64,000 nt of DNA from Flavobacteriaceae bacterium (GTDB lineage: Bacteria > Bacteroidota > Bacteroidia > Flavobacteriales > Flavobacteriaceae): the NCBI GenBank assembly GCA_963669405.2, contig CAXXHF010000001.1, positions 194,493 to 258,492 on the forward strand, in the 5' to 3' direction. Positions 2,415-50,522 of the stretch are shown here, one piece after another (the first letter of the stretch is position 1; every line of letters starts with the position of its first letter). The notes under the pieces were generated by a model. The model saw only the letters and a list, made by a program, of their open reading frames with translations, was not told where the DNA came from and made no database searches. Position numbers and translations under genes: made by a program.

Positions 2415-2440
2415 TCAACAGCAATTAATGTCATTACATA

Positions 2441-3145
2441 CACATTCCCCTACTCTCCTACCGTCGCTTCGGGCAAAGCGTATTCCATTGTATTTTTAAG
2501 AAGAAAATTAAGGAAGGAAAAAATCTAAAGACGCTTATATATAACTTTGCTTTTTTAGCGCAAAGCAAAGTTACATAACGCGAAATTATAGTACAAATGT
2601 GTCTGTGTAGCCGTTTTGCCCAATCGTGCCATTTGATAGCTATAATTCCATATTATGTAAAATATCCCAGGAAGTCCCGTAGACACAATAAACTATTGTC
2701 TGGGGGTCATTAAACTTCAGGCTCTTGGCTTTGATGCCAAACAATGAACATCTCGTTATTTGTAGCTATAATCAGACGCTATGTAAAATTGCCGCGCCCA
2801 ACCGCCAGATTGCTAAATAAAATCAAATTGCTTTATGGCAATTTATTTTAACCACAATTAGCCACCGCTTGGCCACACCAAAAAAAGCTAACTTTTGTCT
2901 TTTGTTTGAAACTCGCGTATTCGGGGAAAATCCCGCAAGATTTTTTTCTACGGCATTCTCGTCAACGTTCCGCAAGAGTACAAAATTACTCTGCGAGATA
3001 ATTTCTGTACACTTGCTCAAATCTATCATTTGTTTGAAGCTTTCAGGGTTTGATATGTCTTTTTTCCTTGATGAAAAAAGAAACAAAAAAATCAAGGCTG
3101 CACAAAACTTTGGAAACAATGTACGGCTCAATCGCTATATTTTAG
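2441..3145. repeat. Direct repeat B, copy 1: 705-bp non-coding segment resembling the oriT/leading region of a flavobacterial conjugative element
   Basis: Near-identical to 9436-10140 (offset 6995); partial copies at about 21450-21650 and 25934-26004. The oriT call is inference. Confidence 0.85.
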
Positions 3146-3303
3146 AAAACATTGTAACTGGTTAAGATTGCTTGGAACTCACTTTAAAGCCTTGTTATTG
3201 TTAAGGATATGTATTGCTAGCCCCCTAAAATATGCACGCTCATTTCTCCTATTGTTTTGACCAAAATTTTATGAGGCCGTTTTGCAGTTACGAAAATTAA
3301 GTA

Positions 3304-5682: not shown

Positions 5683-6303
5683 ATGAATGTACGATTAACG
5701 AAGGAGCAAAAAATTAAGGTGCTCAACTCCAAGGATATCTATGCCATCATGCAGCAGGTATTGTTGCGGGAAAATAAAATACGGAGAAACCAAGAGCATT
5801 TCTGGGTTGTGGGTCTGGACAACCAAAACAAGATACTTTTTGTAGAACTCATTGGTCTTGGTGCTGTAAACCGTGTTAATGCAAACCCGCCAGATGTGTT
5901 CCGTATGGGGATTTACAAACTGGCCGTAAAAATGATACTGGTACACAACCACCCTAGCGGTAATATTGAACCTTCTAATGAAGACAGGGACTTTACCGAT
6001 AAGATGCTAAAGGTTGGAGCGCTTATAAACATTGAGGTTATAGACCATTTGGTGATTTCGGAAACCGATTACACGAGTTTTGGTGACAAAGGCATTATTA
6101 AAGAGTTGCAAGGCTCTGGACTGTTTGAGATTGTGGAACGTGAAAAGGAAGAGATTAAGGCTTGGAAACTACGTCTGGAACGTGAACGTGCTGTAAAAGC
6201 AAGCAAGATTGAAATCGCATCTAAAATGAAGGATGATGGTGTGGATATAGATATAATTAAAAAATATACTGGACTAACGAAGCCTGAGATTAAGAAACTG
6301 TAA
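5683..6303 (+). CDS. radC: RadC-like JAB domain protein
   Basis: ILVHNHPSGNIEPSNEDRDFT...IDHLVI; -7 box TATCTTTG at 5671-5678. Confidence 0.93.
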   Translation: MNVRLTKEQKIKVLNSKDIYAIMQQVLLRENKIRRNQEHFWVVGLDNQNKILFVELIGLGAVNRVNANPPDVFRMGIYKLAVKMILVHNHPSGNIEPSNEDRDFTDKMLKVGALINIEVIDHLVISETDYTSFGDKGIIKELQGSGLFEIVEREKEEIKAWKLRLERERAVKASKIEIASKMKDDGVDIDIIKKYTGLTKPEIKKL

Positions 6304-6386
6304 GGCTGAGTGCTGCCTCTCTCCTATTGGTTTAGACAAAATTTTATGAGGTCAAGTTTGATATTGAGATTCTACTTTAAATAATA

Positions 6387-7988
6387 TTATTCTTTATAGA
6401 TTCTAGGCTTTCTCCTTTTTCCCTTTTCTTTTCTTCTTTGTGTCTTTCCAGCCTCTTGACTATACCTTTGCATACTAGTTTTTTTTACTTCTCTTTCTAT
6501 AATTCCAAAATGAGCAGACAATTGCCGCTTGATACTTTTTGAATCCATCCCATCATATTCTATTCCTTTGGCATTTTTATAAGTTTTTTTTGCAGAGTTT
6601 CTTGCATAGCTTAAAAAATTCCTTTTACCAAGATGGGAGTATCTTTCATATAGTTGTTTTTTAAATATTTTATCTGATTTACCATATTTACTATAAGACA
6701 TCATAACAGTCTTTACAATTCGGCCTTTCATTTTTCTAAAATACCTAGATAAACTACCTGGTCTTATATAAATATCCTGCCCATTAAATTCGAAACCAAG
6801 ATATTGCAAGTTTTTATAATATTTTTGTTCGTTATCGATAGTAATACTAGCCTTTTCAAGATTAATTTTCTTTTTATTAAACGCTCTATATTTACCATTA
6901 GAATTTTTAAAAAACTCTAAATATTCAGTTTTCTTATCTTGAATTACCAGTTTATACTTTTTAATTTCTTTTAAGACTAAATCATTTAGAAATTCAGCAT
7001 CTTTAGTATCACAAATAAGCAATAAGTCATCACAATATCTATAATACTTAAAGCCTATTTTTTGTCCTAGTTTAAATAACCACTCATCAAAATCAATTAA
7101 GTAAATATTTGAGAGTAATGCACTCATTGAAGAGCCTTGGGGAATTCCTCTATATTCTTCAGTTCCATCATTCATTTTTTTAGGTAAATTGGTAACAAGA
7201 AGTCGTCTATCTCTTATTAAATTAAACTTATCTTTAAATGATTTCCCTGCTATTGAATCAGGTATTAAATCTAATAGCGTTTGCCATCTTTCACCAGCTT
7301 TTTTCTTTTCATTTAGGTTTATTTTGAAATGTCTTAAAATACTATCCATTCTAACATAATTATATTTTGTTAGAGATCGAAACACCTTATATTGATCTAT
7401 TGGTAACTGTTCATTTCCTATGACTTTACACCATTTCTCTTTCAAGGTAAAATGGTCAATATTATCAAAATAACCTGTTATATCTAATGCTATGACTGCA
7501 CACTCTTTACTTTGCGTAAAGTGAGCTATAACGTCATCAAATGCTTGTTTAGCAAATTGAATATTGCATTTACCATCTAAATCCGTTCTATATGCTAAAA
7601 CAGAATCAGAAAACCCTTTTCTTAAAATATAATCTTGATATTGTTCTGTTAAGGCAAAAGAATAGAATGCATATAAGTAAGAATCAAAATGCGAGGCAAA
7701 AGAAATTGGTCGAATTTTGGTTTCTAATCCATAAAGCAAATGCTTCTTTTGATATCTGTAGCGTGGAGTCTTTGTAAGTATTTTAACGAACGGTAAAAAG
7801 GAGTGTTTACTTACAGCTTCTAGAGTTGGGTCACTTACTAAATCTTGAAGCTTCTTACTTGAATTTAGGAAGTTATAATATGGATCAAATTGTGGATACT
7901 TTTTTAACTCAAATTCTTCTTCAGAAGTTCCAAGTTTTTCACAGAATCTTTTCCAAATATCTTCTGTGTATAATGATGCATTTTTCAT
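6387..7988 (-). CDS. drt2: Antiviral reverse transcriptase, DRT2 (UG2) family, 533 aa
   Basis: HSFLPF, RPISFASHFDSYLY, ALDITGYFDNIDH, GIPQGSSMSALLSNIY, YYRYCDD, LQYLGF, RYSHLGKRNFLSY match DRT2 motifs as I recall them. Confidence 0.88.
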   Translation of the reverse strand: MKNASLYTEDIWKRFCEKLGTSEEEFELKKYPQFDPYYNFLNSSKKLQDLVSDPTLEAVSKHSFLPFVKILTKTPRYRYQKKHLLYGLETKIRPISFASHFDSYLYAFYSFALTEQYQDYILRKGFSDSVLAYRTDLDGKCNIQFAKQAFDDVIAHFTQSKECAVIALDITGYFDNIDHFTLKEKWCKVIGNEQLPIDQYKVFRSLTKYNYVRMDSILRHFKINLNEKKKAGERWQTLLDLIPDSIAGKSFKDKFNLIRDRRLLVTNLPKKMNDGTEEYRGIPQGSSMSALLSNIYLIDFDEWLFKLGQKIGFKYYRYCDDLLLICDTKDAEFLNDLVLKEIKKYKLVIQDKKTEYLEFFKNSNGKYRAFNKKKINLEKASITIDNEQKYYKNLQYLGFEFNGQDIYIRPGSLSRYFRKMKGRIVKTVMMSYSKYGKSDKIFKKQLYERYSHLGKRNFLSYARNSAKKTYKNAKGIEYDGMDSKSIKRQLSAHFGIIEREVKKTSMQRYSQEAGKTQRRKEKGKRRKPRIYKE

Positions 7989-8510
7989 CTTTTTAATGGG
8001 ACATTAGCCAGATAGCAGTATCAGACATTAACTAATCTGACTAATGTACAATGTGTTTCATTGCTTAACTTGTGACTGCCTCAATCACATAAGGATTTTC
8101 ACCTTTACAAGTCTTAATCCACCCTTGGCCAATCAAATTATTATTTGCATAATAAGATGTGACACTTCAGATTGCAAAAACGCAACCTTCTCAAGGTTCA
8201 GGTAGTGTGTCTGCACTACTTTCGTTTTACCTTGAGACCTCGCAGAATATGTTTCGGTTCTACTCGGACTTTCTAGTTTGCACTAGTGAGGTCTTTAAAC
8301 AAATATAAATATGTTATGCTTAATAATTACTTCTTTAACAGCTTATGTATCAACTGTCTACTAGGTTTAATAGTAGATGTTATGACACAAGAGATATTAT
8401 CAGAGAGTTTGTCTGTGCAGCTGCACGTGACAAACTTGGTATACTTCTTGCGTTGTATACTAATAAATATTAACTTAAACAATTTACCCCCCAAACTACA
8501 TTGAAGGCAA
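7989..8510 (-). ncRNA. Putative DRT2-associated ncRNA; 5' end uncertain (about 8294 or about 8510)
   Basis: Dense hairpins: 8001-8047 (12 bp), 8071-8089, 8138-8155 and 8273-8286 (both GCAA loops), 8203-8219, 8358-8378, 8406-8436; lies directly upstream of the RT. Confidence 0.75.
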
Positions 8511-8630
8511 TAATTATATTTCAATATTTGTGCCATAATTTGAATAGGACAAGTTGTCAGATGTAATTAAAATAAGTAATTTAAATCCATTCCACAAACA
8601 TTGCACTACTCCCCTACGTCGTTGAATGTT

Positions 8631-9287
8631 TCACTTGAAATGAAAAAAATTCCAGTCCATAATAAGGTTATTTCCATCTTGTACATTTCCAATCTTATCC
8701 ATCAATCGGTATCTGTGTCCAGCTCCTACTAGGAATACAGCTTTTTTTGGTTTGTTTAGTTTGAAGTAATTTTGAATTAGATTAATCCAATGGTTTTCGC
8801 GTATGTCATTCCATTTTAACCACTGTGCGTAAAAATTTAATAACCCGTTATATTTCTCTTTATTCTTATTTATGAAATACTTCTCCATCGAATTTTTATC
8901 TCTACATATTTTGTCACAGTCTAGACTGTTTAAAAATGGGAATCCCTTTAAGTATGTCTCATTGATAAGCAATCGAGTTGCACCAGCATATTCTCCCATT
9001 TCTCGTTTAATTAACTTAAACATTGCCTCAAGACGTTGGTCAAACGGATCTTCATTAACATCAACTGGAACTATTTCTATAGGTTTTCCTTCTTGGTTTA
9101 ATCTTTTAATTACGTTTATTTCTGGAGTGTTAACATCAGTTCTCTTTAAATATTGAGGTAACTTTTCAGGTGAAGCCTCGCAAAAAACTACTTGAGGATT
9201 TATTTTCTGAATAATTTTATATAATTCTTCAGACGTACAAGCTCCATCTTCGACATGGGCAGTTCCTAAAACAATCAAAGTACTCAT
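8631..9287 (-). CDS. Hypothetical protein (218 aa); paralog of 1-640
   Basis: Complete ATG ORF; GTAH, FCEASPE and VFLVGAGHR motifs. Confidence 0.85.
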   Translation of the reverse strand: MSTLIVLGTAHVEDGACTSEELYKIIQKINPQVVFCEASPEKLPQYLKRTDVNTPEINVIKRLNQEGKPIEIVPVDVNEDPFDQRLEAMFKLIKREMGEYAGATRLLINETYLKGFPFLNSLDCDKICRDKNSMEKYFINKNKEKYNGLLNFYAQWLKWNDIRENHWINLIQNYFKLNKPKKAVFLVGAGHRYRLMDKIGNVQDGNNLIMDWNFFHFK

Positions 9288-9435
9288 ACATCTATTTATT
9301 TTACTTCTTTAAGTCAAATGTTAGACCAACTGATAATATTTTTAATTTTTAATAAAATCACTGACAAAAATTCAAATAATATAAGAAGATGGTGTCGCTA
9401 TGTCATTAAATTTTCCTTTTCTTATCCATTTCACA

Positions 9436-10140
9436 CACATTCCCCTCCTCTCCTACCGTCGCTCCGGTAAAAGAGTGTTCCATTAAGTGTTTAAGAAGAA
9501 AATTAAGGAAGGAAAAAATCTAAAGACGCTTATATATAACTTTGCTTTTTTAGCGCAAAGCAAAGTTACATAACGCGAAATTATAGTACAAATGTGTCTG
9601 TGTAGCCGTTTTGCCCAATCGTGCCATTTGATAGCTATAATTCCATATTATGTAAAATATCCCAGGAAGTCCCGTAGACACAATAAACTATTGTCTGGGG
9701 GTCATTAAACTTCAGGCTCTTGGCTTTGATGCCAAACAATGAACATCTCGTTATTTGTAGCTATAATCAGACGCTATGTAAAATTGCCGCGCCCAACCGC
9801 CAGATTGTTTTTAAAAAATTAAATGCTTTATGGCATTTATTTTTAAACTCAATTCGCCACCGCTTGGCCACACCAAAAAAAGCTGGCTTTTGCCTTTTGT
9901 TTGAAATTCGCGTATTCGGGGAAAATCCCGCAAGATTTTTTTCTACGGCATTTTCGTCAACGTTACGCAAGAGTACAAAATTACTCTGTGAGATAATTTC
10001 CGTACACTTGCTCAAATCCGTCATTTGTTTGAAGCTTTCAGGGTTTGACATGTCTTTTTTCCTTGATGAAAAAAGAAACAAAAAAATCAAGGCTGCACAA
10101 AACTTTGGAAACAATGTACGGCTCAATCGCTATATTTTAG
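9436..10140. repeat. Direct repeat B, copy 2
   Basis: Near-identical to 2441-3145. Confidence 0.88.
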
Positions 10141-10315
10141 ATTATTTAGCGTTAAGAGAATGTCCTGTGGACATTTTTAGCTAAATACGATTTGAGGATG
10201 GATGTATTTCTATCGAATCATCCACTGGATAATTCTCACGAAATAACCTATTGTTTTACCAAAATTTTATGAGGCCGTTTTAGATCCGTCGTTCTATTTT
10301 ACATAATGTTAGAAA

Positions 10316-10716
10316 CTAAGCATTTAGTTTATCTATCATATTTTCTAACGAATACTTTGCTAATGCTGGAATTGTATGGCGCGTAACTTTAATTTCCCAA
10401 TTGGATAAACTAGGCATTAAGGTTACATTGTTTTCTATGAAAATATCTGAATTGGATTCTGCTAATGCTTCAGATGGAATGAAATAAAACACTGTTGGCT
10501 CTTTATCTATGATCAATACTAAAACGATAAATAAATCGCTCCTCAATTCGCCTAAATCTTCTTTGGATATTTTGATGCTTAATTGTGCTGCATCTTTATT
10601 GATGGGTTGTAAGTATAATTGATTGTCTCCTATTAAGAAATCAACCCCTTCCCTCCCATCGGTTTTGTCAATTAATTCTATTTTAATTCTGATTTTAGAA
10701 ACTCTAAGGCAATCAT
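10316..10716 (-). pseudogene. Hypothetical gene, apparently frameshifted near its start
   Basis: ATG at 10716 overlaps the HTH stop (ATGA) but reaches TAG after MIALEFLKSELK; the long frame resumes IELIDKTDGREG. Confidence 0.5.
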
Positions 10717-10919
10717 TTTGTAGAAACCAATAGCTCTCTAATATCCACATCTAGGATTTCTGCTATTTTTTTTAAATCTTTTAGGTGCGGTTGTGATTTA
10801 TTATTGCAAAAAGCCGTTACAGAAGTAGTACTTTTTCCAAGTTCTTCCGCGAGCCAAACTTGCGATTTTCCTTGAATTACTAATACTTCTTTTATTCTAT
10901 TTATCCTTTCTATTGCCAT
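10713..10919 (-). CDS. XRE/Cro-like HTH regulator
   Basis: NRIKEVL...SQVWLAEELGKSTTSVTAFCNNKSQP...IAEILDV. Confidence 0.92.
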   Translation of the reverse strand: MAIERINRIKEVLVIQGKSQVWLAEELGKSTTSVTAFCNNKSQPHLKDLKKIAEILDVDIRELLVSTK

Positions 10920-11032: not shown

Positions 11033-11113
11033 AATTAACTTTATATAAGTTAAAATTATATAAATGTAATTTTTAATTAAATTTTTATTGTTAACAACTT
11101 TATTTCAATTTTT

Positions 11114-11305
11114 ATGCCACATCCAAAGTATACTAAAGCCGACCTTGAGAAAATCATACTTACGCAACTGGATAACCTAAATGCAATTCACGACTTGTTA
11201 CGCATCATGAAACTGCAAAATGAACTTATTGATAATGCCAATAAGAAATTAAAGGATGAAGTGATTGATTTTAAGAAACGCGTTAATTATGGATCAAAAA
11301 AGTAA
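11114..11305 (+). CDS. Small hypothetical, coiled-coil-like protein (63 aa)
   Basis: ATG ORF downstream of a -7 box; higher GC than its flanks. Confidence 0.65.
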   Translation: MPHPKYTKADLEKIILTQLDNLNAIHDLLRIMKLQNELIDNANKKLKDEVIDFKKRVNYGSKK

Positions 11306-12339: not shown

Positions 12340-15097
12340 CTCTATCTAATTTTCCTTTTAACTCAATTAAATGCTTTTCTGCTAATTCTATTTCTTTTTT
12401 TATTAGAGTTTCTTCTTTTGAAATATCATTTAATAAGTCATTAAGTCTAGTCTTAATTATCCGTTCCCCCACGATATCGATCTTTTTTTGCAGTTCAGAA
12501 TATTTTTCACTACTTATTTTATAGGAACTGTTACTCTTTAACTCATACAATTCACCAAAAAGTTCTTCAATCTTATCTTTGGCATATTCTCCAATAAACC
12601 CATCGTTCATAAAAAAGCCATCAGCCATTAAGTCATAAATATTAGCTCCAAAAGTTTGATTTTCACTATCTTTTGGCTTACCATCGTTTAATCTTAATGT
12701 ATAAAACTCTGGTATATCAGAAAGGATATAAGGAGAATGTGTGATTAAACAGATATTTATAGAATCAATGTTTTCTAAGTAAATTTTACCAAGTGTTTTT
12801 AATAAATAGGACAGATATTTTCTTTGCAATTCTGGATGATAGTATAATTCTATTTCATCTAAAATCAAATTGATACTAGTATAATTGACTAAGTCCGTAT
12901 CATTAGATTCAATAGAGTTTAAATTCTTAATATGATATATAATAGAATTTATAGCGTGTATTTGTTGTTTCTCACCGGAGCTTAGTTTATTAAAATCTGA
13001 AATATTACCTAAGTCATCGATAACAACAATTTCCGTTTTAAAAATTGGAGGTGGAAGTAATTCAATAAGTTCTATTTTTTCTAATTCAGAGTTTTTTCTA
13101 GCAAGCTTTTCAACTTCTATATTTAAATAATCTAGTTCTAAATCGAAATCAAGTTCTTTTGGAAGTAAAGGAGTATATTTTAAATAATTTATAGCCTGCT
13201 TTAGTTTATAAACTATGTGACTAGAATCATTAACAATCTTTTTCACATACGCTTCCCATTCTTTAATATTAATATTTAAACTACGAGGAGAACCTAAATC
13301 AAATTTCTTTTTATAATGGGGATATGTTTCCCAAATTCGAATCAATTTTCTAAAAATATATTTTATAGTCTCTTTTTCTAATTGACCTATTTTTTCAGTT
13401 TTAATACTGAAAACCTCATAGACAATTTCAATATATTTTTCAATTTCGTAATAAACACCTAAGTCATTAGCTTTAACTTGCTCTTGAACCTCTTTAAAGA
13501 ATCTTGTGTTTTTTTCCTTATCTAATTGAAAATTAATTTTTAATACTTTTTGTGAATCAGTTAATTGCCTTATTCCTAAATCACCTTCTTCGACTGGATC
13601 AAAAAGATTTGCTACTAATCTCGATTTAGCTAGCTCATTTTCTGTATTAATATGGATGTCTCCTTCTGTTCTCATTGGGTTAAAAACGATGGGAGCTTGA
13701 TAGCTATCATTTTTATGAAACAATTTTTCAATCCAAGGCCCTAAATGTCTACTGTTTAATGCATAGTGAGAATAATTAATGCATATGGTATAGAAAAATG
13801 AATAAAAATCTGTTCTAGAAAAAGACCTTCCTCCTCTTAATAGGTTAAAAAATGATCTGCCATTGTCATCCTTTTTACCTTTTTCTAAAAGATATTCAAA
13901 TACCTTGGTTTCTTTATTAATAACTTGTAAACGAATTATTTTATCTCCTACTTTATAATATAATTCAGTAGCCAAGTTTTCCTCCAGAATCAATTCTTCT
14001 GTATTTAAAGAATCTTTAAAGGGATAAGTAATATTGTTAATCGTTTTTGCTAATAGTTCTATTAAACTACTTTTCCCTGAACCATTTTTACCTACTATTG
14101 CCGTAACATTAACATTTAAATTATTAGGATGTTCAATGTTGTATAATTGTATGTCTTTAGACGAGTCATATCGAATATATTTTTTTTCAATTTTAAAAGC
14201 TTTTTCAAAGTAATATATATTTTCAGTATTGTTTTTAAGAACATTTAAATGCTCTTTGTCACATTCATCTAAAAACTTTATAGCTATCATTTTAAAATCG
14301 ACTGATAAGCTTGTTTCATTAAATTCAGATTCATTTTTTATCCCAAAAAAATCTTGCAAATTTGAAGAAATTTTAACCTGAGTCTTAGAGTTTATTAAAG
14401 CATAAGAAGCATATGCTATTTCTCTATAAATTGCTTTGTCTCCCCAAGTTTCACTATTATAATTATGCTCATCTATTTTTCTTACCAAAGAAAAGTAGTC
14501 TTGAATATTGAAATTTTGAGGTAAGAAATGACTAATTTGAAGGTATTGACGAGTGTTTTTATCCAGAGGAATAAAATTATCTGATCTCACCCAAAATACA
14601 AAAGTGGTTAAAGAAGCAAACTCTATACCATACCAACCTTTATATAATTCAAATTCTTCTATCCTAAGGGTAGAATTCCCATTAAGATAAATAAGAGCAA
14701 AGAAATTCCATATTTGCTCTTGCATCCCTAAAGATCTTATTGATGATTGTTTTATAACTGGAGGAGCTGGGCAACCTGTAAAATCTATTCCATTAACCTT
14801 TAAATTAGAACCAAAAACTTTTAATAAAATCTGTATTCTATCAATTCTAGATTCTTCTTTTAAAGAGTTTCCGTTTATAGAACTAAATAAGTGAATTGGG
14901 TCCAATCCAGAAGCTACATTGTCATCATCAATAAATTTTTGAAACCATTGATTAGCATCAATAAATTCCTTGTGGTCTTTTAAACGATTAAATAAGAAAA
15001 CAGGAGATAATTTTGTGTTTTTTCGGAAATATTCAAAGAGTTTTTCGGCTAGTTCGTCATAAACTAAGTACCACTTTATTTCTTTTTCTGAATTCAT
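12326..15097 (-). CDS. ABC-type ATPase (PtuA-like) with an extra N-terminal domain
   Basis: Walker A GKNGSGKS, signature LSSGEKQ, Walker B LILDEIELYYHP, ITHSPYILSD. Confidence 0.9.
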   Translation of the reverse strand: MNSEKEIKWYLVYDELAEKLFEYFRKNTKLSPVFLFNRLKDHKEFIDANQWFQKFIDDDNVASGLDPIHLFSSINGNSLKEESRIDRIQILLKVFGSNLKVNGIDFTGCPAPPVIKQSSIRSLGMQEQIWNFFALIYLNGNSTLRIEEFELYKGWYGIEFASLTTFVFWVRSDNFIPLDKNTRQYLQISHFLPQNFNIQDYFSLVRKIDEHNYNSETWGDKAIYREIAYASYALINSKTQVKISSNLQDFFGIKNESEFNETSLSVDFKMIAIKFLDECDKEHLNVLKNNTENIYYFEKAFKIEKKYIRYDSSKDIQLYNIEHPNNLNVNVTAIVGKNGSGKSSLIELLAKTINNITYPFKDSLNTEELILEENLATELYYKVGDKIIRLQVINKETKVFEYLLEKGKKDDNGRSFFNLLRGGRSFSRTDFYSFFYTICINYSHYALNSRHLGPWIEKLFHKNDSYQAPIVFNPMRTEGDIHINTENELAKSRLVANLFDPVEEGDLGIRQLTDSQKVLKINFQLDKEKNTRFFKEVQEQVKANDLGVYYEIEKYIEIVYEVFSIKTEKIGQLEKETIKYIFRKLIRIWETYPHYKKKFDLGSPRSLNINIKEWEAYVKKIVNDSSHIVYKLKQAINYLKYTPLLPKELDFDLELDYLNIEVEKLARKNSELEKIELIELLPPPIFKTEIVVIDDLGNISDFNKLSSGEKQQIHAINSIIYHIKNLNSIESNDTDLVNYTSINLILDEIELYYHPELQRKYLSYLLKTLGKIYLENIDSINICLITHSPYILSDIPEFYTLRLNDGKPKDSENQTFGANIYDLMADGFFMNDGFIGEYAKDKIEELFGELYELKSNSSYKISSEKYSELQKKIDIVGERIIKTRLNDLLNDISKEETLIKKEIELAEKHLIELKGKLDRDAEN

Positions 15098-21449: not shown

Positions 21450-21650
21450 CCATTCCATACACATTTTGCCTCCACTCCTCTGCCCTTTCTGCAAAAAGCG
21501 TATTCCATTACATTTTTAAAGAAACATTAAGGAAGAAAAAATCCAAGAAAATTGGGTTAAAGAACTTCGCTTTTGCCCAAGCAAAGTTACATAACGCGAG
21601 TACATTATAGTACAAATGTGTCTGTGTAGCCGTTTTGCGCAATTGTGCTT
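21450..21650. repeat. Diverged partial copy of repeat B
   Basis: gcaaagttacataacgcg...tatagtacaaatgtgtctgtgtagccgttttgc shared with 2560-2620 and 9555-9615. Confidence 0.85.
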
Positions 21651-25751: not shown

Positions 25752-26024
25752 AAGTACACAAGTTAAGCAGACTAAATATAAGGAACTAACCAGTAAAGAA
25801 ATAGGTGCTCGCGAACCCTTCGGGTTTCATTAAAATCGTAAACAAACTTCTGGAAATCAATTTTTCAAGAAACTGTAGTCTAAACTTTCGCTTTTATCCA
25901 AAACTCAAGTTGCAAAACACAAGGATATTATATAAAATATCCCAGGAAGTCTCGTAGGGACACAATAAGCCTTAGTATTTGCTCATTAAAGTTCTATGAG
26001 GCCGAAAATGAAACTACCATATGG

Positions 26025-27885: not shown

Positions 27886-28152
27886 TGTAATGTAATTTAT
27901 TAATACTTGTTACTAGGCAAAGATAGTGCCAATAAATTATAATACAACTAATTAGCGTACATGATTTATTTTACCCATGCTTTCCAACCCATCTCTACAT
28001 CTAAATTTGCACTGACAAATCACTGATAATTACAAATTAAAAGGTAGATAAACATCTCTCATACTAATGAATATGAGCCTATTCCGAAAATTGTGATTCT
28101 AAAAACTTACGGGGCATATTATAAACCTTTGGATTGGCTTCAGAGTTTTATC

Positions 28153-49061: not shown

Positions 49062-50522
49062 TTAGTATTCTACTCCATTAAGTGCTTCGTAGGCAAATTT
49101 TGCATTGAGGTAGATACTATGCCGTACACGTATGTTATTTTTATTTTCTTCGAAAACTTGATTATAATACTCTTCGGCCTTGTCTTCATTTCCAAGATAT
49201 AAGTTACCTTCTGCCAAGGTTGCCATTTCCCATGTTTCAGTAGTCTCTGGATCACAATTGGCCAAGGCAATTTCTGCAAATTCCTTCATTTTAGATTTGT
49301 CCTCTTTATAAACCAAATAGAAGAATGCCACATTAATAGCGAGGTAAAACACCTGGTTTTTATCTACCTCAATTGCATTAGCAGCCATATCATATCCTTC
49401 TAAATAGGTTTCCCAAGCATTCTTGGCATCTTCAGAATCACTTCCATGATATAAATACTTCCGTTTGTATCTTCCTCCTAATATTCCTTTAAAGTCAGAA
49501 TGTGTAGCTGTTATAGGGTGTGATTCCAAAATTGCTATGGCATCATCATCCTTTCCAAGTGTATCTAATGCCAATATCAAACTACGTAGATCTCTAGGTG
49601 TTAGTTTTGAAATATTATCATCCAACTTATCTACAACGTCACTTGCCTTTGCCATAACCGTATTCACCAAGTAGGAATCAATATTAGTACCATAGCGTTC
49701 TTGTACAATGGTTGGTATAACACTATCCAATATCATTCGGAAACAAAGATTTTCGGTATCGGTATCGCTTTTCGCCTTTACCATGGTACTATGGTTTCCT
49801 TCTATTAGGTATTGATGGTCTTTAGCAAATGGTTTTAAAGAGGAAGTTTGTGGTATAAATTCATCTGAATTTCCCGCAACTACTTTAAAATCTTCAAACG
49901 GATATCCTTCACTGAAGGTATTGTTCCAATCTGTTCTCAAAGAGGTAATAAATTCACTCTCAGATCCCATGTTTTTAATTTGGGATTTCATTTTTTTAGC
50001 TACACGTAAATTGGCAACATTCAATCCGCCACTAGGAGTACCAAAGAACAATAAGTGTTTAATTCTTTTAAGATTGGATGTGTCTAAATTAAGGGTACAG
50101 CGTTGTGTGACCAACCCTCCCATACTATGGGCAATTATAGTAACTCTTCCATACGCCTTAAACCGTGTAGTGAGAAGGGTTTCTAGATAGTTGGACAAGG
50201 TATTCACATCGGGGTCCGCAGACCAAATTCCTTTCGCAATATCTGGTAAGATACTAGAGCTATAACCAATAGAAAATACATCATACCCTTTTAGTTGCGG
50301 TTCTTTTATAAGCAGTTCAGGAACATTGGCAAAAGTCTCCGTTGCAGATCCTGTAAAACCATGAATAAAAAGAATCAGGTTCCCTTTCTTTTCTTCTTCC
50401 CTATAACAATAAACGTCTCCATCATTCTTGCCAGACTCCTTCTCTGTTATCTTTTTTACAACTATTTTGCCAATTGTCTTTATAGCAAACTGAAGAATAA
50501 ATGTAGGAATGGATATACTCAT
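49062..50522 (-). CDS. Alpha/beta hydrolase (lipase-like) + TPR sensor domain
   Basis: FIHGFTG, AHSMGG, FGTPSGG, GNHSTMVK; GILGGRYKR...YLAINVAF...ATLAE. Confidence 0.85.
   Translation of the reverse strand: MSISIPTFILQFAIKTIGKIVVKKITEKESGKNDGDVYCYREEEKKGNLILFIHGFTGSATETFANVPELLIKEPQLKGYDVFSIGYSSSILPDIAKGIWSADPDVNTLSNYLETLLTTRFKAYGRVTIIAHSMGGLVTQRCTLNLDTSNLKRIKHLLFFGTPSGGLNVANLRVAKKMKSQIKNMGSESEFITSLRTDWNNTFSEGYPFEDFKVVAGNSDEFIPQTSSLKPFAKDHQYLIEGNHSTMVKAKSDTDTENLCFRMILDSVIPTIVQERYGTNIDSYLVNTVMAKASDVVDKLDDNISKLTPRDLRSLILALDTLGKDDDAIAILESHPITATHSDFKGILGGRYKRKYLYHGSDSEDAKNAWETYLEGYDMAANAIEVDKNQVFYLAINVAFFYLVYKEDKSKMKEFAEIALANCDPETTETWEMATLAEGNLYLGNEDKAEEYYNQVFEENKNNIRVRHSIYLNAKFAYEALNGVEY

Follow-up and report, generated by a model that had tools for sequence, protein, structure and literature searches.

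We identified a probable Bacteroidota variant of the DRT2/neo defence module in the genome of a member of the Flavobacteriaceae, within a 64,000-nt stretch of DNA referred to below as the window. As proposed here, and as the sequences lead us to think likely, the module would copy an RNA template into a concatemeric cDNA, thereby restoring a permuted gene that encodes a repeat toxin. Comparison of the window with 25 other loci (26 in total; the RTs of the 25 are 44-89% identical) established the family of its reverse transcriptase (RT) and revealed a structured RNA upstream, a pair of short motifs around a predicted template, an in-frame stop-free unit between them and a permuted order of promoter-like motif and ATG. 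Homology between the window and the related loci stops at 6358 and 8624, and these 2.27 kb (6358-8624) appear to form a self-contained DRT2 defence module. Its features are as follows.

6387-7988, minus strand: DRT2 (UG2) reverse transcriptase gene; intact ORF of 533 aa with a YCDD active site
7989-8510, minus strand: predicted DRT2 non-coding RNA (ncRNA, ~520 nt) made up of 5' handle, template, 3' scaffold and 3' tail; ends predicted, kept in 26 loci
8488-8507, minus strand: 5' handle hairpin CCUUCAA / UUGGGGG, directly 5' of the template, from covariation
8301-8480, minus strand: predicted template of the RNA, 180 nt with a closing basal stem, from the length rule and covariation
8475-8482, minus strand: 5' jump motif, GTT at 8480-8478 inside the 8-nt repeat TTGTTTAA; putative analogue of ACA-1
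8295-8302, minus strand: 3' jump motif and candidate primer-binding site (PBS), GTT at 8300-8298 inside TTGTTTAA; putative analogue of ACA-2/PBS
8001-8294, minus strand: 3' scaffold, from RNAalifold and helix covariation
7991-8000, minus strand: conserved 3' tail CCCAUUAAAA, directly before the RT start, from pairing with the 3' motif
8298-8477, plus strand: predicted neo repeat unit, 60 codons, NKYKYVM...ININL, from the codon register; stop-free when concatenated
8316-8318, plus strand: ATG of the predicted neo unit, conserved as CAT in the RNA alignment
8521-8535, minus strand: TGGCACAAATATTGA, -24/-12 motif of sigma-54 type and candidate promoter for the joint transcript of ncRNA and RT; distance constant in 22/26 loci
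8547-8559, minus strand: TGACA-N3-TGTCC, tandem TG[AT]CA half-sites, conserved in most aligned loci
8437-8451, plus strand: TGGTATACTTCTTGC, -24/-12 motif of sigma-54 type, 40 nt ahead of the junction on the neo strand

By sequence, the RT is a member of the DRT2 family. Profile-based placement among RT classes put it inside DRT2/UG2, with PADLOC Drt2 (PDLC03757) matching at E 2.6e-128 compared with 8e-24 for the second-best family, UG17, and its top PDB sequence matches were the Klebsiella DRT2 chains 9c0i/9lje (E 1e-68). The NCBIfam Drt2 model (NF041746) scored 382.5 bits, 7.5 below its equivalog cut-off of 390 bits, which the RT of a clade mate (L002) passes with 394.3 bits. The catalytic motif reads RYCDDLLLI and aligns with the YCDD of 9lje. 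Compared with Klebsiella DRT2, the RT carries inserted segments around residues 225-270, 361-393 and 470-483, and its C-terminal tail is basic. A first-pass annotation had already called a DRT2-type RT with a YCDD active site, and both calls held up; the span that it gave, 6387-8510, coincides with the RT and RNA as delimited here.

The same annotation had placed the system next to radC inside a mobile remnant. A RadC gene is indeed the convergent neighbour of the RT (5683-6303, plus strand). This neighbourhood is not conserved: RadC and TraB-like genes are absent near all of the related loci, which rules out both as system partners and makes RadC an incidental neighbour. No integrase, transposase or tRNA was found to back the idea of a mobile remnant. 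The module lies in a cassette array in which a repeated element of ~715 nt separates the cassettes.

The region upstream of the RT is predicted to encode a structured RNA on the RT strand, as the first-pass annotation had also proposed, and both folding and covariation substantiate it. The fold energy of 7989-8510 is -144.4 kcal/mol, compared with -112.3 +/- 6.4 in shuffled sequences (z -5.05). Across the related-locus alignments, the named helices are 77% paired, compared with 30-47% when one partner is slid, and covariation scores of 0.26 and 0.38 exceed the maxima of the slid controls (0.10 and 0.15). The RNA had no family match in Rfam, and no conserved ORF was found on the RT strand of this stretch in the related loci. 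Two candidates within it were rejected. A sense ORF of 69 aa (8327-8536, minus strand) is open in the window and in the L001 group and missing in the closest relatives, L010/L011. A GGCA/UGCC hairpin at ~8533-8505 has wobble changes only, with several mismatches and zero compensatory pairs, and was read as promoter DNA.

The helices of the 5' handle are 80-85% paired, with five of seven pairs changed on both sides. The basal stem that closes the template (about 8487-8478 with 8315-8305) has four of five pairs changed on both sides in related loci; it is contained in the minimum free energy fold of the window, and the window's own stem is imperfect in the family register. The 3' scaffold seems to be long and pseudoknotted, with predicted long-range pairs (GGAU 8120-8117 with GUCC 8002-7999, and 8113-8109 with 8010-8006), a GAGG/CCUC-type hairpin and extra stem-loops; 38 pairs with changes on both sides were found among the 16 helices scored in the 3' region. 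In the window, this scaffold is ~70 nt longer than in most clade members. In the tail that follows it, UUAAA (7996-7992) pairs with UUUAA (8299-8295) of the 3' motif, and the variable pair of this helix occurs as C:G (15 sequences) or as U:A (6 sequences). [quoted passage not shown]

The two jump motifs obey a strict length rule. The GTT pair is kept in 25 of 26 loci, and the two copies change together, L029 having CTTTA and L022/L057 having GTT.AT at each position; the run common to both copies is 8 nt in the window. The distance from motif to motif is divisible by three in all 26 loci, spanning nine distinct lengths from 126 to 180 nt (180 in the window), whereas the scaffold lengths of the same loci are spread 2/8/5 across the three residues. 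In L002, an in-frame TAG lies directly outside the 3' motif. In the window alone, 161 other units are stop-free when circular and have end homology of 3 nt or more, so the choice of unit is founded wholly on conservation. A positive-control scan of single sequences, the Photobacterium and Psychrobacter drt2 plasmid loci, was ambiguous and did not single out an ACA unit.

Between these motifs, one antisense frame has no stops over three concatenated units in 26/26 loci, with 3-30 stops in the remaining frames save for one further stop-free frame in L018/L023. The chance of an open frame is 0.003-0.1 per locus, and the shuffle probability for the window is 0.003. The stretch from the 3' motif to the ATG is also in frame (12-24 nt) and open across loci. 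Together, the motif pair, the length rule, the stop-free frame and the conserved ATG lend comparative backing, as a prediction, to the neo-type mechanism that the first-pass annotation had cited. Substitutions in the unit are non-synonymous far more often than synonymous. They show no third-codon-position bias across related loci, and we therefore dropped this bias as a coding test; the sole coding signals are thus the open frame and the length rule, which a simple linear antisense ORF (ATG 8316 to TGA 8502-8504) would explain as well. A protein family search with the unit returned no match. The predicted peptide is strongly hydrophobic, and an AF2 model of the unit (pLDDT 71.5) folds it into a helix-turn-helix of two helices; Neo has been reported as two helices (PMC11100668). 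Repeats in the clade range from 42 to 60 codons.

We also examined promoter-like elements on both strands. The ncRNA-RT transcript is predicted to start near 8510, and the motif upstream of it (8521-8535) fits a Bacteroidota -33/-7 promoter (TTG, 20 nt, AAATATTG) equally well as sigma-54. The tandem half-sites at 8547-8559 are possibly a regulator site or a -33 box. On the neo strand, 21 of 26 loci have the sigma-54-like motif at precisely 40 nt from the end of the unit, irrespective of unit length. In chromosomal order this motif is downstream of the ATG, and only a concatemer would put it ahead of the ATG as a candidate neo promoter, a role that we infer from the motif alone. The window contains six matches to the sigma-54 pattern (1.15 expected), and rpoN is present in the genome. 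A genome-wide census gave a weak signal: there were 75 relaxed matches, few of them upstream of genes, with 20% intergenic compared with 6-8% for other spacings. No sigma-70 -35/-10 pair split across the window junction was found (best match <9/12); in L018/L023, the predicted junction creates TTGACA-17-TATATT, with 11/12 and 10/12 matches. We rejected a Bacteroidota -33/-7 promoter for neo, as the neo strand has no TAnnTTTG at suitable spacing, and RNA pairing between the two sigma-54-like motifs, as the positions that vary in one do not co-vary with those in the other.

Promoters of the sigma-54 type need an ATP-dependent activator and are otherwise silent. Tentatively, and with more doubt than belief, we suggest that the clade may have swapped a split sigma-70 promoter for two sites of sigma-54 control: a -24/-12 promoter from which the ncRNA and RT would be transcribed, and an opposite-strand promoter within the template from which transcription would enter the neo start codon solely in a concatemer. 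If so, defence would need a host stress-sensing activator in addition to reverse transcription, a transcriptional licence on a permuted gene for a repetitive, membrane-type toxin.

By analogy with Klebsiella DRT2, these elements suggest a route through cDNA synthesis, jumping, expression and toxicity to phage defence. A single minus-strand transcript from near 8510 would comprise the ~520-nt ncRNA followed by the RT mRNA. The RT would extend the RNA 3' end along the template up to the 5' GTT motif (8480-8478), whereupon the newly made end of the cDNA (...TTAAACAA) would anneal again at the 3' copy of TTGTTTAA (8302-8295), identical to the 5' one, and another round would be copied, giving a head-to-tail cDNA of 180-nt units. 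Once the cDNA is double-stranded, each junction would set the promoter-like TGGTATACTTCTTGC upstream of ATG 8316, and transcription and translation would yield an endless 60-residue hydrophobic helix-turn-helix repeat, arresting the infected cell.

Of the alternatives, the one that survives best, although we judge it unlikely, is that a DRT2 RT and its RNA accompany an antisense ORF that is an ordinary linear gene of 62 aa (ATG 8316 to TGA 8502-8504), expressed without concatenation, either from the chromosome or from cDNA in single copy. The ATG and the stop both exist in the linear sequence, indels in multiples of three and an open frame are expected of any ORF, and an 8-codon tail after the unit is common to several loci. 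However, this tail ranges from 2 to >30 codons with no conserved stop, and it ends after two in the closest relatives, L010/L011. Such a gene would also not call for an open, in-frame stretch between the 3' motif and the ATG, nor for two motif copies that co-vary; the sole conserved promoter-like element of its strand is directed away from the ATG, downstream of which it is found, and the near-consensus promoter of L018/L023 forms across the junction only.

It is improbable, too, that the RNA is a scaffold or template for non-coding DNA, or a mere leader of the RT mRNA, with the open frame left untranslated. The barely constrained amino-acid sequence and the unit's failure to match a protein family would agree with this, as would the published analysis, in which Neo annotation was 'more challenging' in divergent DRT2 clades. 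A frame that is stop-free in 26/26 AT-rich loci is nevertheless hard to explain without translation, the unit length is always divisible by three whereas the scaffold length is not, and the ATG is conserved.

We give little credence to rolling-circle copying with other ends, whether of a 108-nt ATACA unit (8346-8453) or of a 114-nt AAGAAGTA unit (8336-8449). In the window, both are stop-free and circular with 5-8 nt of end homology, and their lengths are nearer the 111-129 nt reported for Klebsiella-like systems. We rejected both because neither motif pair is conserved and both units leave out the conserved ATG 8316; the stretch at ~8346-8370 is absent from most loci, AAGAAGTA is common to the window and L011 only, and the basal stem, the tail pairing and the fixed 40-nt promoter distance would be left unexplained. 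Least credible of all is the view that the locus is a decaying remnant, no longer active, in a recombination hotspot: it does lie between direct repeats of 92-96% identity with duplicated neighbours, and one relative (L005) has a frameshifted RT, but the RT frame of the window is intact with its YCDD, all RNA motifs agree with the family consensus and the module DNA is 83-85% identical to the intact copies in L010/L011.

To our knowledge, no gene outside DRT2 has been well described that comes into existence solely through reverse transcription. The published rules for it (ACA motifs, a repeat of ~120 nt and a split sigma-70 promoter) derive from Klebsiella-like systems, and the authors found neo harder to annotate in divergent DRT2 clades. 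New here is a rule for a template bracketed by a short motif pair in 26/26 loci (GTT in 25 of them), which we predict to define a variant of DRT2/neo. The locus and its 25 relatives turn into testable rules: a GTT jump motif, hydrophobic repeats of 42-60 codons, pairing of tail to template, and a permuted promoter and ATG. If confirmed, the principle of a gene made by reverse transcription would be portable across phyla and promoter types, and annotators would gain a route to hidden genes of the neo kind in Bacteroidota.

Klebsiella pneumoniae DRT2 consists of a UG2 RT, a 281-nt ncRNA and neo (Tang et al. 2024 PMC11100668; Wilkinson et al. 2024 PMC12039810; PDB 9c0i). As in the window, one YCDD-bearing RT gene of this family is preceded on its own strand by an ncRNA that has a hairpin at its 5' end, a template enclosed by a basal stem and, on the 3' side, a folded scaffold containing long-range pairs. 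In both, the template lies between two identical short motifs whose spacing is a multiple of three, the frame in the cDNA sense lacks stops and has a start codon close to the junction, the 3' end of the RNA is brought to that of the template (as predicted here), and the repeat unit is predicted to be alpha-helical. The window differs in the length of its RNA (~520 nt compared with 281), in its repeat (180 nt, and 126-180 in the clade, compared with 111-129 in Klebsiella-like systems), in its jump motif (GTT, within the 8-nt TTGTTTAA, instead of ACA) and in an RT that exceeds the Klebsiella one by ~100 aa and has insertions and a basic tail. Whereas Klebsiella DRT2 splits a sigma-70 -35/-10 promoter across the junction, the window has a complete sigma-54-like motif at the unit end and the ATG at its start, such that the gene itself, rather than its promoter, would be permuted. 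Its repeat, unlike that of Klebsiella DRT2, is strongly hydrophobic.

Other DRT2 clades have divergent RTs and ncRNA covariance models specific to each clade, with neo predicted in some (Tang et al. 2024 PMC11100668); fig. S6 of that study presents a tree of 2,116 homologues. The pipeline of the study used the Klebsiella locus as its reference for finding the cDNA region, and it is doubtful that it would find a GTT-bounded 180-nt unit. The text of the study's supplement names no Bacteroidota, and our literature search on DRT2 in Bacteroidota found nothing.

A second DRT2-like clade of Flavobacteriaceae (L006, L007 and L067-L080) has RTs of 504-542 aa, with Drt2 scores of 346-348 bits (L006/L007). 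As in the window, stop-free antisense stretches lie upstream of the RT, of 66-108 codons in this clade. These RTs are only 31-38% identical to that of the window, with YSDD in place of YCDD; the pair of sigma-54-like motifs is absent from this clade, and its template is nearer the RT than in the clade of the window. More broadly, the predicted mechanism is akin to that of telomerase and DRT10, in that an RNA-bound RT would realign the 3' end of its product on a short repeat flanking the template. In the window, however, the template would be 180 nt long and coding, and the product would be a gene rather than a telomere-like repeat.

The features of the DRT2 locus are as follows.

5683-6303, plus strand: RadC, converging on the reverse transcriptase (RT)
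6387-7988, minus strand: RT frame, uninterrupted, 533 codons, containing RYCDDLLLI
8300-8293, minus strand: 3' copy of the conserved motif GTT(T/C)A(A)
8316-8318, plus strand: conserved in-frame ATG, kept as CAT in the RNA
8480-8474, minus strand: 5' copy of the conserved motif GTT(T/C)A(A)
8535-8521, minus strand: sigma-54-like motif, TGGCACAAATATTGA, upstream of the 5' handle

Among RT classes, HMM placement put the PADLOC Drt2 model (E = 2.6e-128, residues 22-516) far ahead of the next class, UG17, at only 8e-24, and the best solved-structure relatives by sequence were the Klebsiella DRT2 chains 9c0i and 9lje (E = 1e-68). These matches bear out the DRT2-type RT with YCDD that the first-pass annotation had proposed. 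Pfam returned the generic RVT_1 domain only. With the NCBIfam Drt2 equivalog the RT scored 382.5 bits, 7.5 under the curated cut-off, which the RT of a clade mate (L002) clears with 394.3 bits. Compared with the Klebsiella chains, the window RT is extended by insertions near residues 225-270, 361-393 and 470-483, by about 20 additional residues at the N terminus and by a basic tail at the C terminus; together with the family matches, this makes it a long-form DRT2.

The 600 nt preceding the RT could be aligned across all loci, and the predicted fold of 7989-8510 (minus strand), read as RNA, is 5 standard deviations more stable than those of dinucleotide-shuffled sequences. In the 3' part, from the template end to the RT start (23 sequences, structure taken from one member), 77.5% of positions are paired across the alignment versus 30-45% with slid partners, the covariation score is 0.259 versus at most 0.097, and 38 pairs are altered on both sides; long-range pairs of GGAG/CUCC and GGGCC/GGCCC type surround a GAGG-loop-CCUC hairpin. 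The 5' part (handle hairpin, basal stem and internal hairpin) gave 77.4% paired versus 36-47%, with a covariation score of 0.378 versus at most 0.154. The upstream structured RNA noted at first pass is thus upheld, and an Rfam search of it found no family match.

In Klebsiella, neo lies on the strand opposite the RNA (PMC11100668). At the same aligned position in every locus, this strand has a stop-free stretch flanked by the two motif copies, which bound the predicted template repeat, or unit. The motif-to-motif distance is 180 nt in the window and takes nine values (126-180 nt) across 26 usable loci, all divisible by three (L018 and L023, two metagenome loci with 126-nt units, after a 7-nt realignment); in these 26 loci the adjoining scaffold varies too, its length taking 15 different values that cover all residues mod 3. 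When three units are concatenated, one frame is free of stops in 26 of 26 loci and the other two contain 3-30 stops, except in L018 and L023, which have a second stop-free frame. By chance, a single shuffled unit would have an open frame with a probability of 0.003 for the window and 0.01-0.1 for the other loci, and pairwise identity among units is only 45-90%. The conserved ATG lies 9-24 nt past the unit start. As the window alone permits 161 circular stop-free units, the named unit rests on the alignment of the 26 related loci, which are only partly independent of one another. A second 8-nt repeat, AAGAAGTA (8442-8449 and 8328-8335, minus strand), has copies 114 nt apart within the template; this pair also bounds a circular stop-free unit, but was rejected as common only to L011, a near relative.

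Several features argue for a head-to-tail reading, with unit end joined to unit start at a junction, rather than a linear one. The motif copies have at least 3 nt in common in all loci, rising to 8 nt in the window (TTGTTTAA), and they change together (CTTTA at both in locus L029, GTT.AT at both in L022 and L057). The end of the frame is not conserved, a stop following the unit after 2 to more than 30 codons, and ahead of the unit the frame can stop immediately, as in L002, where a TAG adjoins the motif on its outer side; the 12-24 nt from the 3' motif to the ATG are in frame and open throughout. A 5-bp stem between the 5 nt immediately 5' of the 5' motif and 5 nt immediately 3' of the CAT, with both-side changes in four of five pairs, closes the template like basal stem SL2 of Klebsiella. 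Immediately 5' of the RT start codon, a conserved tail, CCCAUU(G/A)AAAA, forms a helix with the 3' motif in which one pair varies (C:G in 15 sequences, U:A in 6); in Klebsiella, the RNA's own 3' end primes cDNA at the template's 3' end (PMC12039810).

The placement of promoter-like elements also favours the head-to-tail reading. In 21 of 26 loci the neo strand carries a bipartite TTGGYAY-N5-TTGC exactly 40 nt ahead of the predicted junction, independent of unit length. On the chromosome this motif is downstream of the ATG and faces out of the template; the order promoter, junction, ATG would arise in the concatemer only. L018 and L023 lack it and have TTGACA-17-TATATT and TTGACT-17-TATATT across the predicted junction, with the ATG 4 nt past the -10 box.

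L018, 1118-1243: 126-nt unit, near-consensus sigma-70 promoter at the junction
L023, 1113-1238: 126-nt unit, near-consensus sigma-70 promoter at the junction

These promoters independently support the predicted junction and represent the Klebsiella solution; the neo mRNA of both loci would be leaderless. What goes beyond sequence comparison, including cDNA copying and expression, we infer.

In 22 of 26 loci the RNA strand has this bipartite motif too, equally spaced, upstream of the 5' handle. No covariation links the variable bases of the two copies, so they do not form an RNA helix. The spacing and GG/GC core are those of sigma-54 -24/-12 promoters (consensus TGGCACG-N4-TTGCW), and the genome has rpoN. 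TGGYAY-N5-TTGM occurs six times in the window versus 1.15 expected. Genome-wide there are 75 relaxed matches, six of them in the 64-kb window; 20% are intergenic versus 6-8% for spacings 4, 6 and 7, and few lie upstream of genes, a thin signal. A Bacteroidota -33/-7 reading fits the RNA's own promoter equally well, and we regard the sigma-54 reading of the motif as possible but rather doubtful. Additional minus-strand matches lie at 27917-27931 (an exact TGGCAC-N5-TTGC), 11105-11119, 14616-14630 and 49678-49692, one of these last three about 190 nt upstream of an HTH gene (10713-10919, minus strand). The two sigma-54-like motifs (within 8437-8535) are oriented towards each other at a distance of about 70 nt. 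Were both active as promoters on the chromosome, their transcripts would overlap across the 5' handle for about 45 nt, which could provide antisense control of the ncRNA.

The predicted 60-residue unit, NKYKYVMLNNYFFNSLCINCLLGLIVDVMTQEILSESLSVQLHVTNLVYFLRCILININL, matched no Pfam family. The clade's units are hydrophobic, with GRAVY values of +0.4 to +1.4, and the majority hold a 19-residue stretch above 1.6. AlphaFold2, given an alignment of 25 units, modelled two helices (residues 2-35 and 40-59) with moderate confidence (pLDDT 71.5). Substitutions are even over codon positions and mostly non-synonymous, so selection seems to maintain an open frame, its length and its general character, not the exact sequence; the codon signal is also blurred by overlapping RNA-structure constraints.

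The first-pass annotation had also placed the system next to radC in a mobile remnant. RadC does adjoin the RT, followed by MarR, isochorismatase and pirin genes, but neither RadC nor a TraB-like gene adjoins DRT2 in any related locus. The mobile remnant was not supported, as no integrase, transposase or tRNA was found near the module. The segment instead lies between direct repeats of 92-96% identity (1-750 and 2432-3165 match 8645-9397 and 9427-10184). Over about 45 kb of the genome, their non-coding part of about 715 nt is present in at least five copies, 95% identical and all oriented alike, and between the copies lie cassettes of unrelated genes, including several defence genes.

2432-3165: copy of the ~715-nt element
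9427-10184: copy of the ~715-nt element
about 21451-21648 and 25925-25968: further sites of the element

Its most widely kept part is a core of about 45 nt (about 10053-10102), and Rfam gave no match to the element. It is clustered in some related genomes, and in two near relatives from metagenomes (L010 and L012) fragments of it lie immediately beside the DRT2 module. The element may mark a recombination hotspot or integron-like array, and the module looks less like part of a recognisable mobile element than like one cassette in an array prone to recombination. The duplicated flanks include paralogous genes (2-640 and 8631-9287, minus strand; 92-94% DNA identity) with faint TraB/PrgY/GumN similarity (E = 0.003).

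DNA homology to the nearest relatives (L010, L011 and L012) runs from 6358/6376 to 8621/8624 and ends there. Pattern scans of reference genomes found five close loci (60-71% identity) in Aequorivita, a Flavobacteriaceae MAG, two Bacteroidales MAGs and a Cyclobacteriaceae MAG; metagenomes add about 20 (44-89%), and another set at about 30% also scores as Drt2. The RT of the Flavobacteriaceae MAG, a long-read assembly (L005, 2254-3797), is frameshifted, with 35 stops in the nominal frame, which may reflect sequencing error or decay. Within the window's own family, sampled at one genome per genus, 15 of 201 genomes have a DRT2-like RT; all but the window's own have YSDD and are only 31-38% identical to it. 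Such a patchy distribution of the window's clade is what one would expect of a defence module that moves horizontally. The second, YSDD-bearing DRT2-like clade (L006, L007 and L067-L080, all from other Flavobacteriaceae genomes) has RTs of 504-542 aa and antisense stop-free stretches of 66-108 codons beginning about 60-90 nt upstream of the RT; the sigma-54-like motif pair is absent from it.

Collectively, our comparisons suggest that the window system, a family member by its RT, works like Klebsiella DRT2. It differs in having a longer RNA (about 520 versus 281 nt), a longer repeat (180 versus 111-129 nt), GTT rather than ACA as jump motif, and a hydrophobic repeat. For divergent clades, a survey covering 2,116 homologues constructed RNA models but reported greater difficulty in annotating Neo (PMC11100668). 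In Klebsiella, expression depends on concatenation through a promoter split in two; in the window it would do so through the permuted order of a complete promoter-like element and the ATG.
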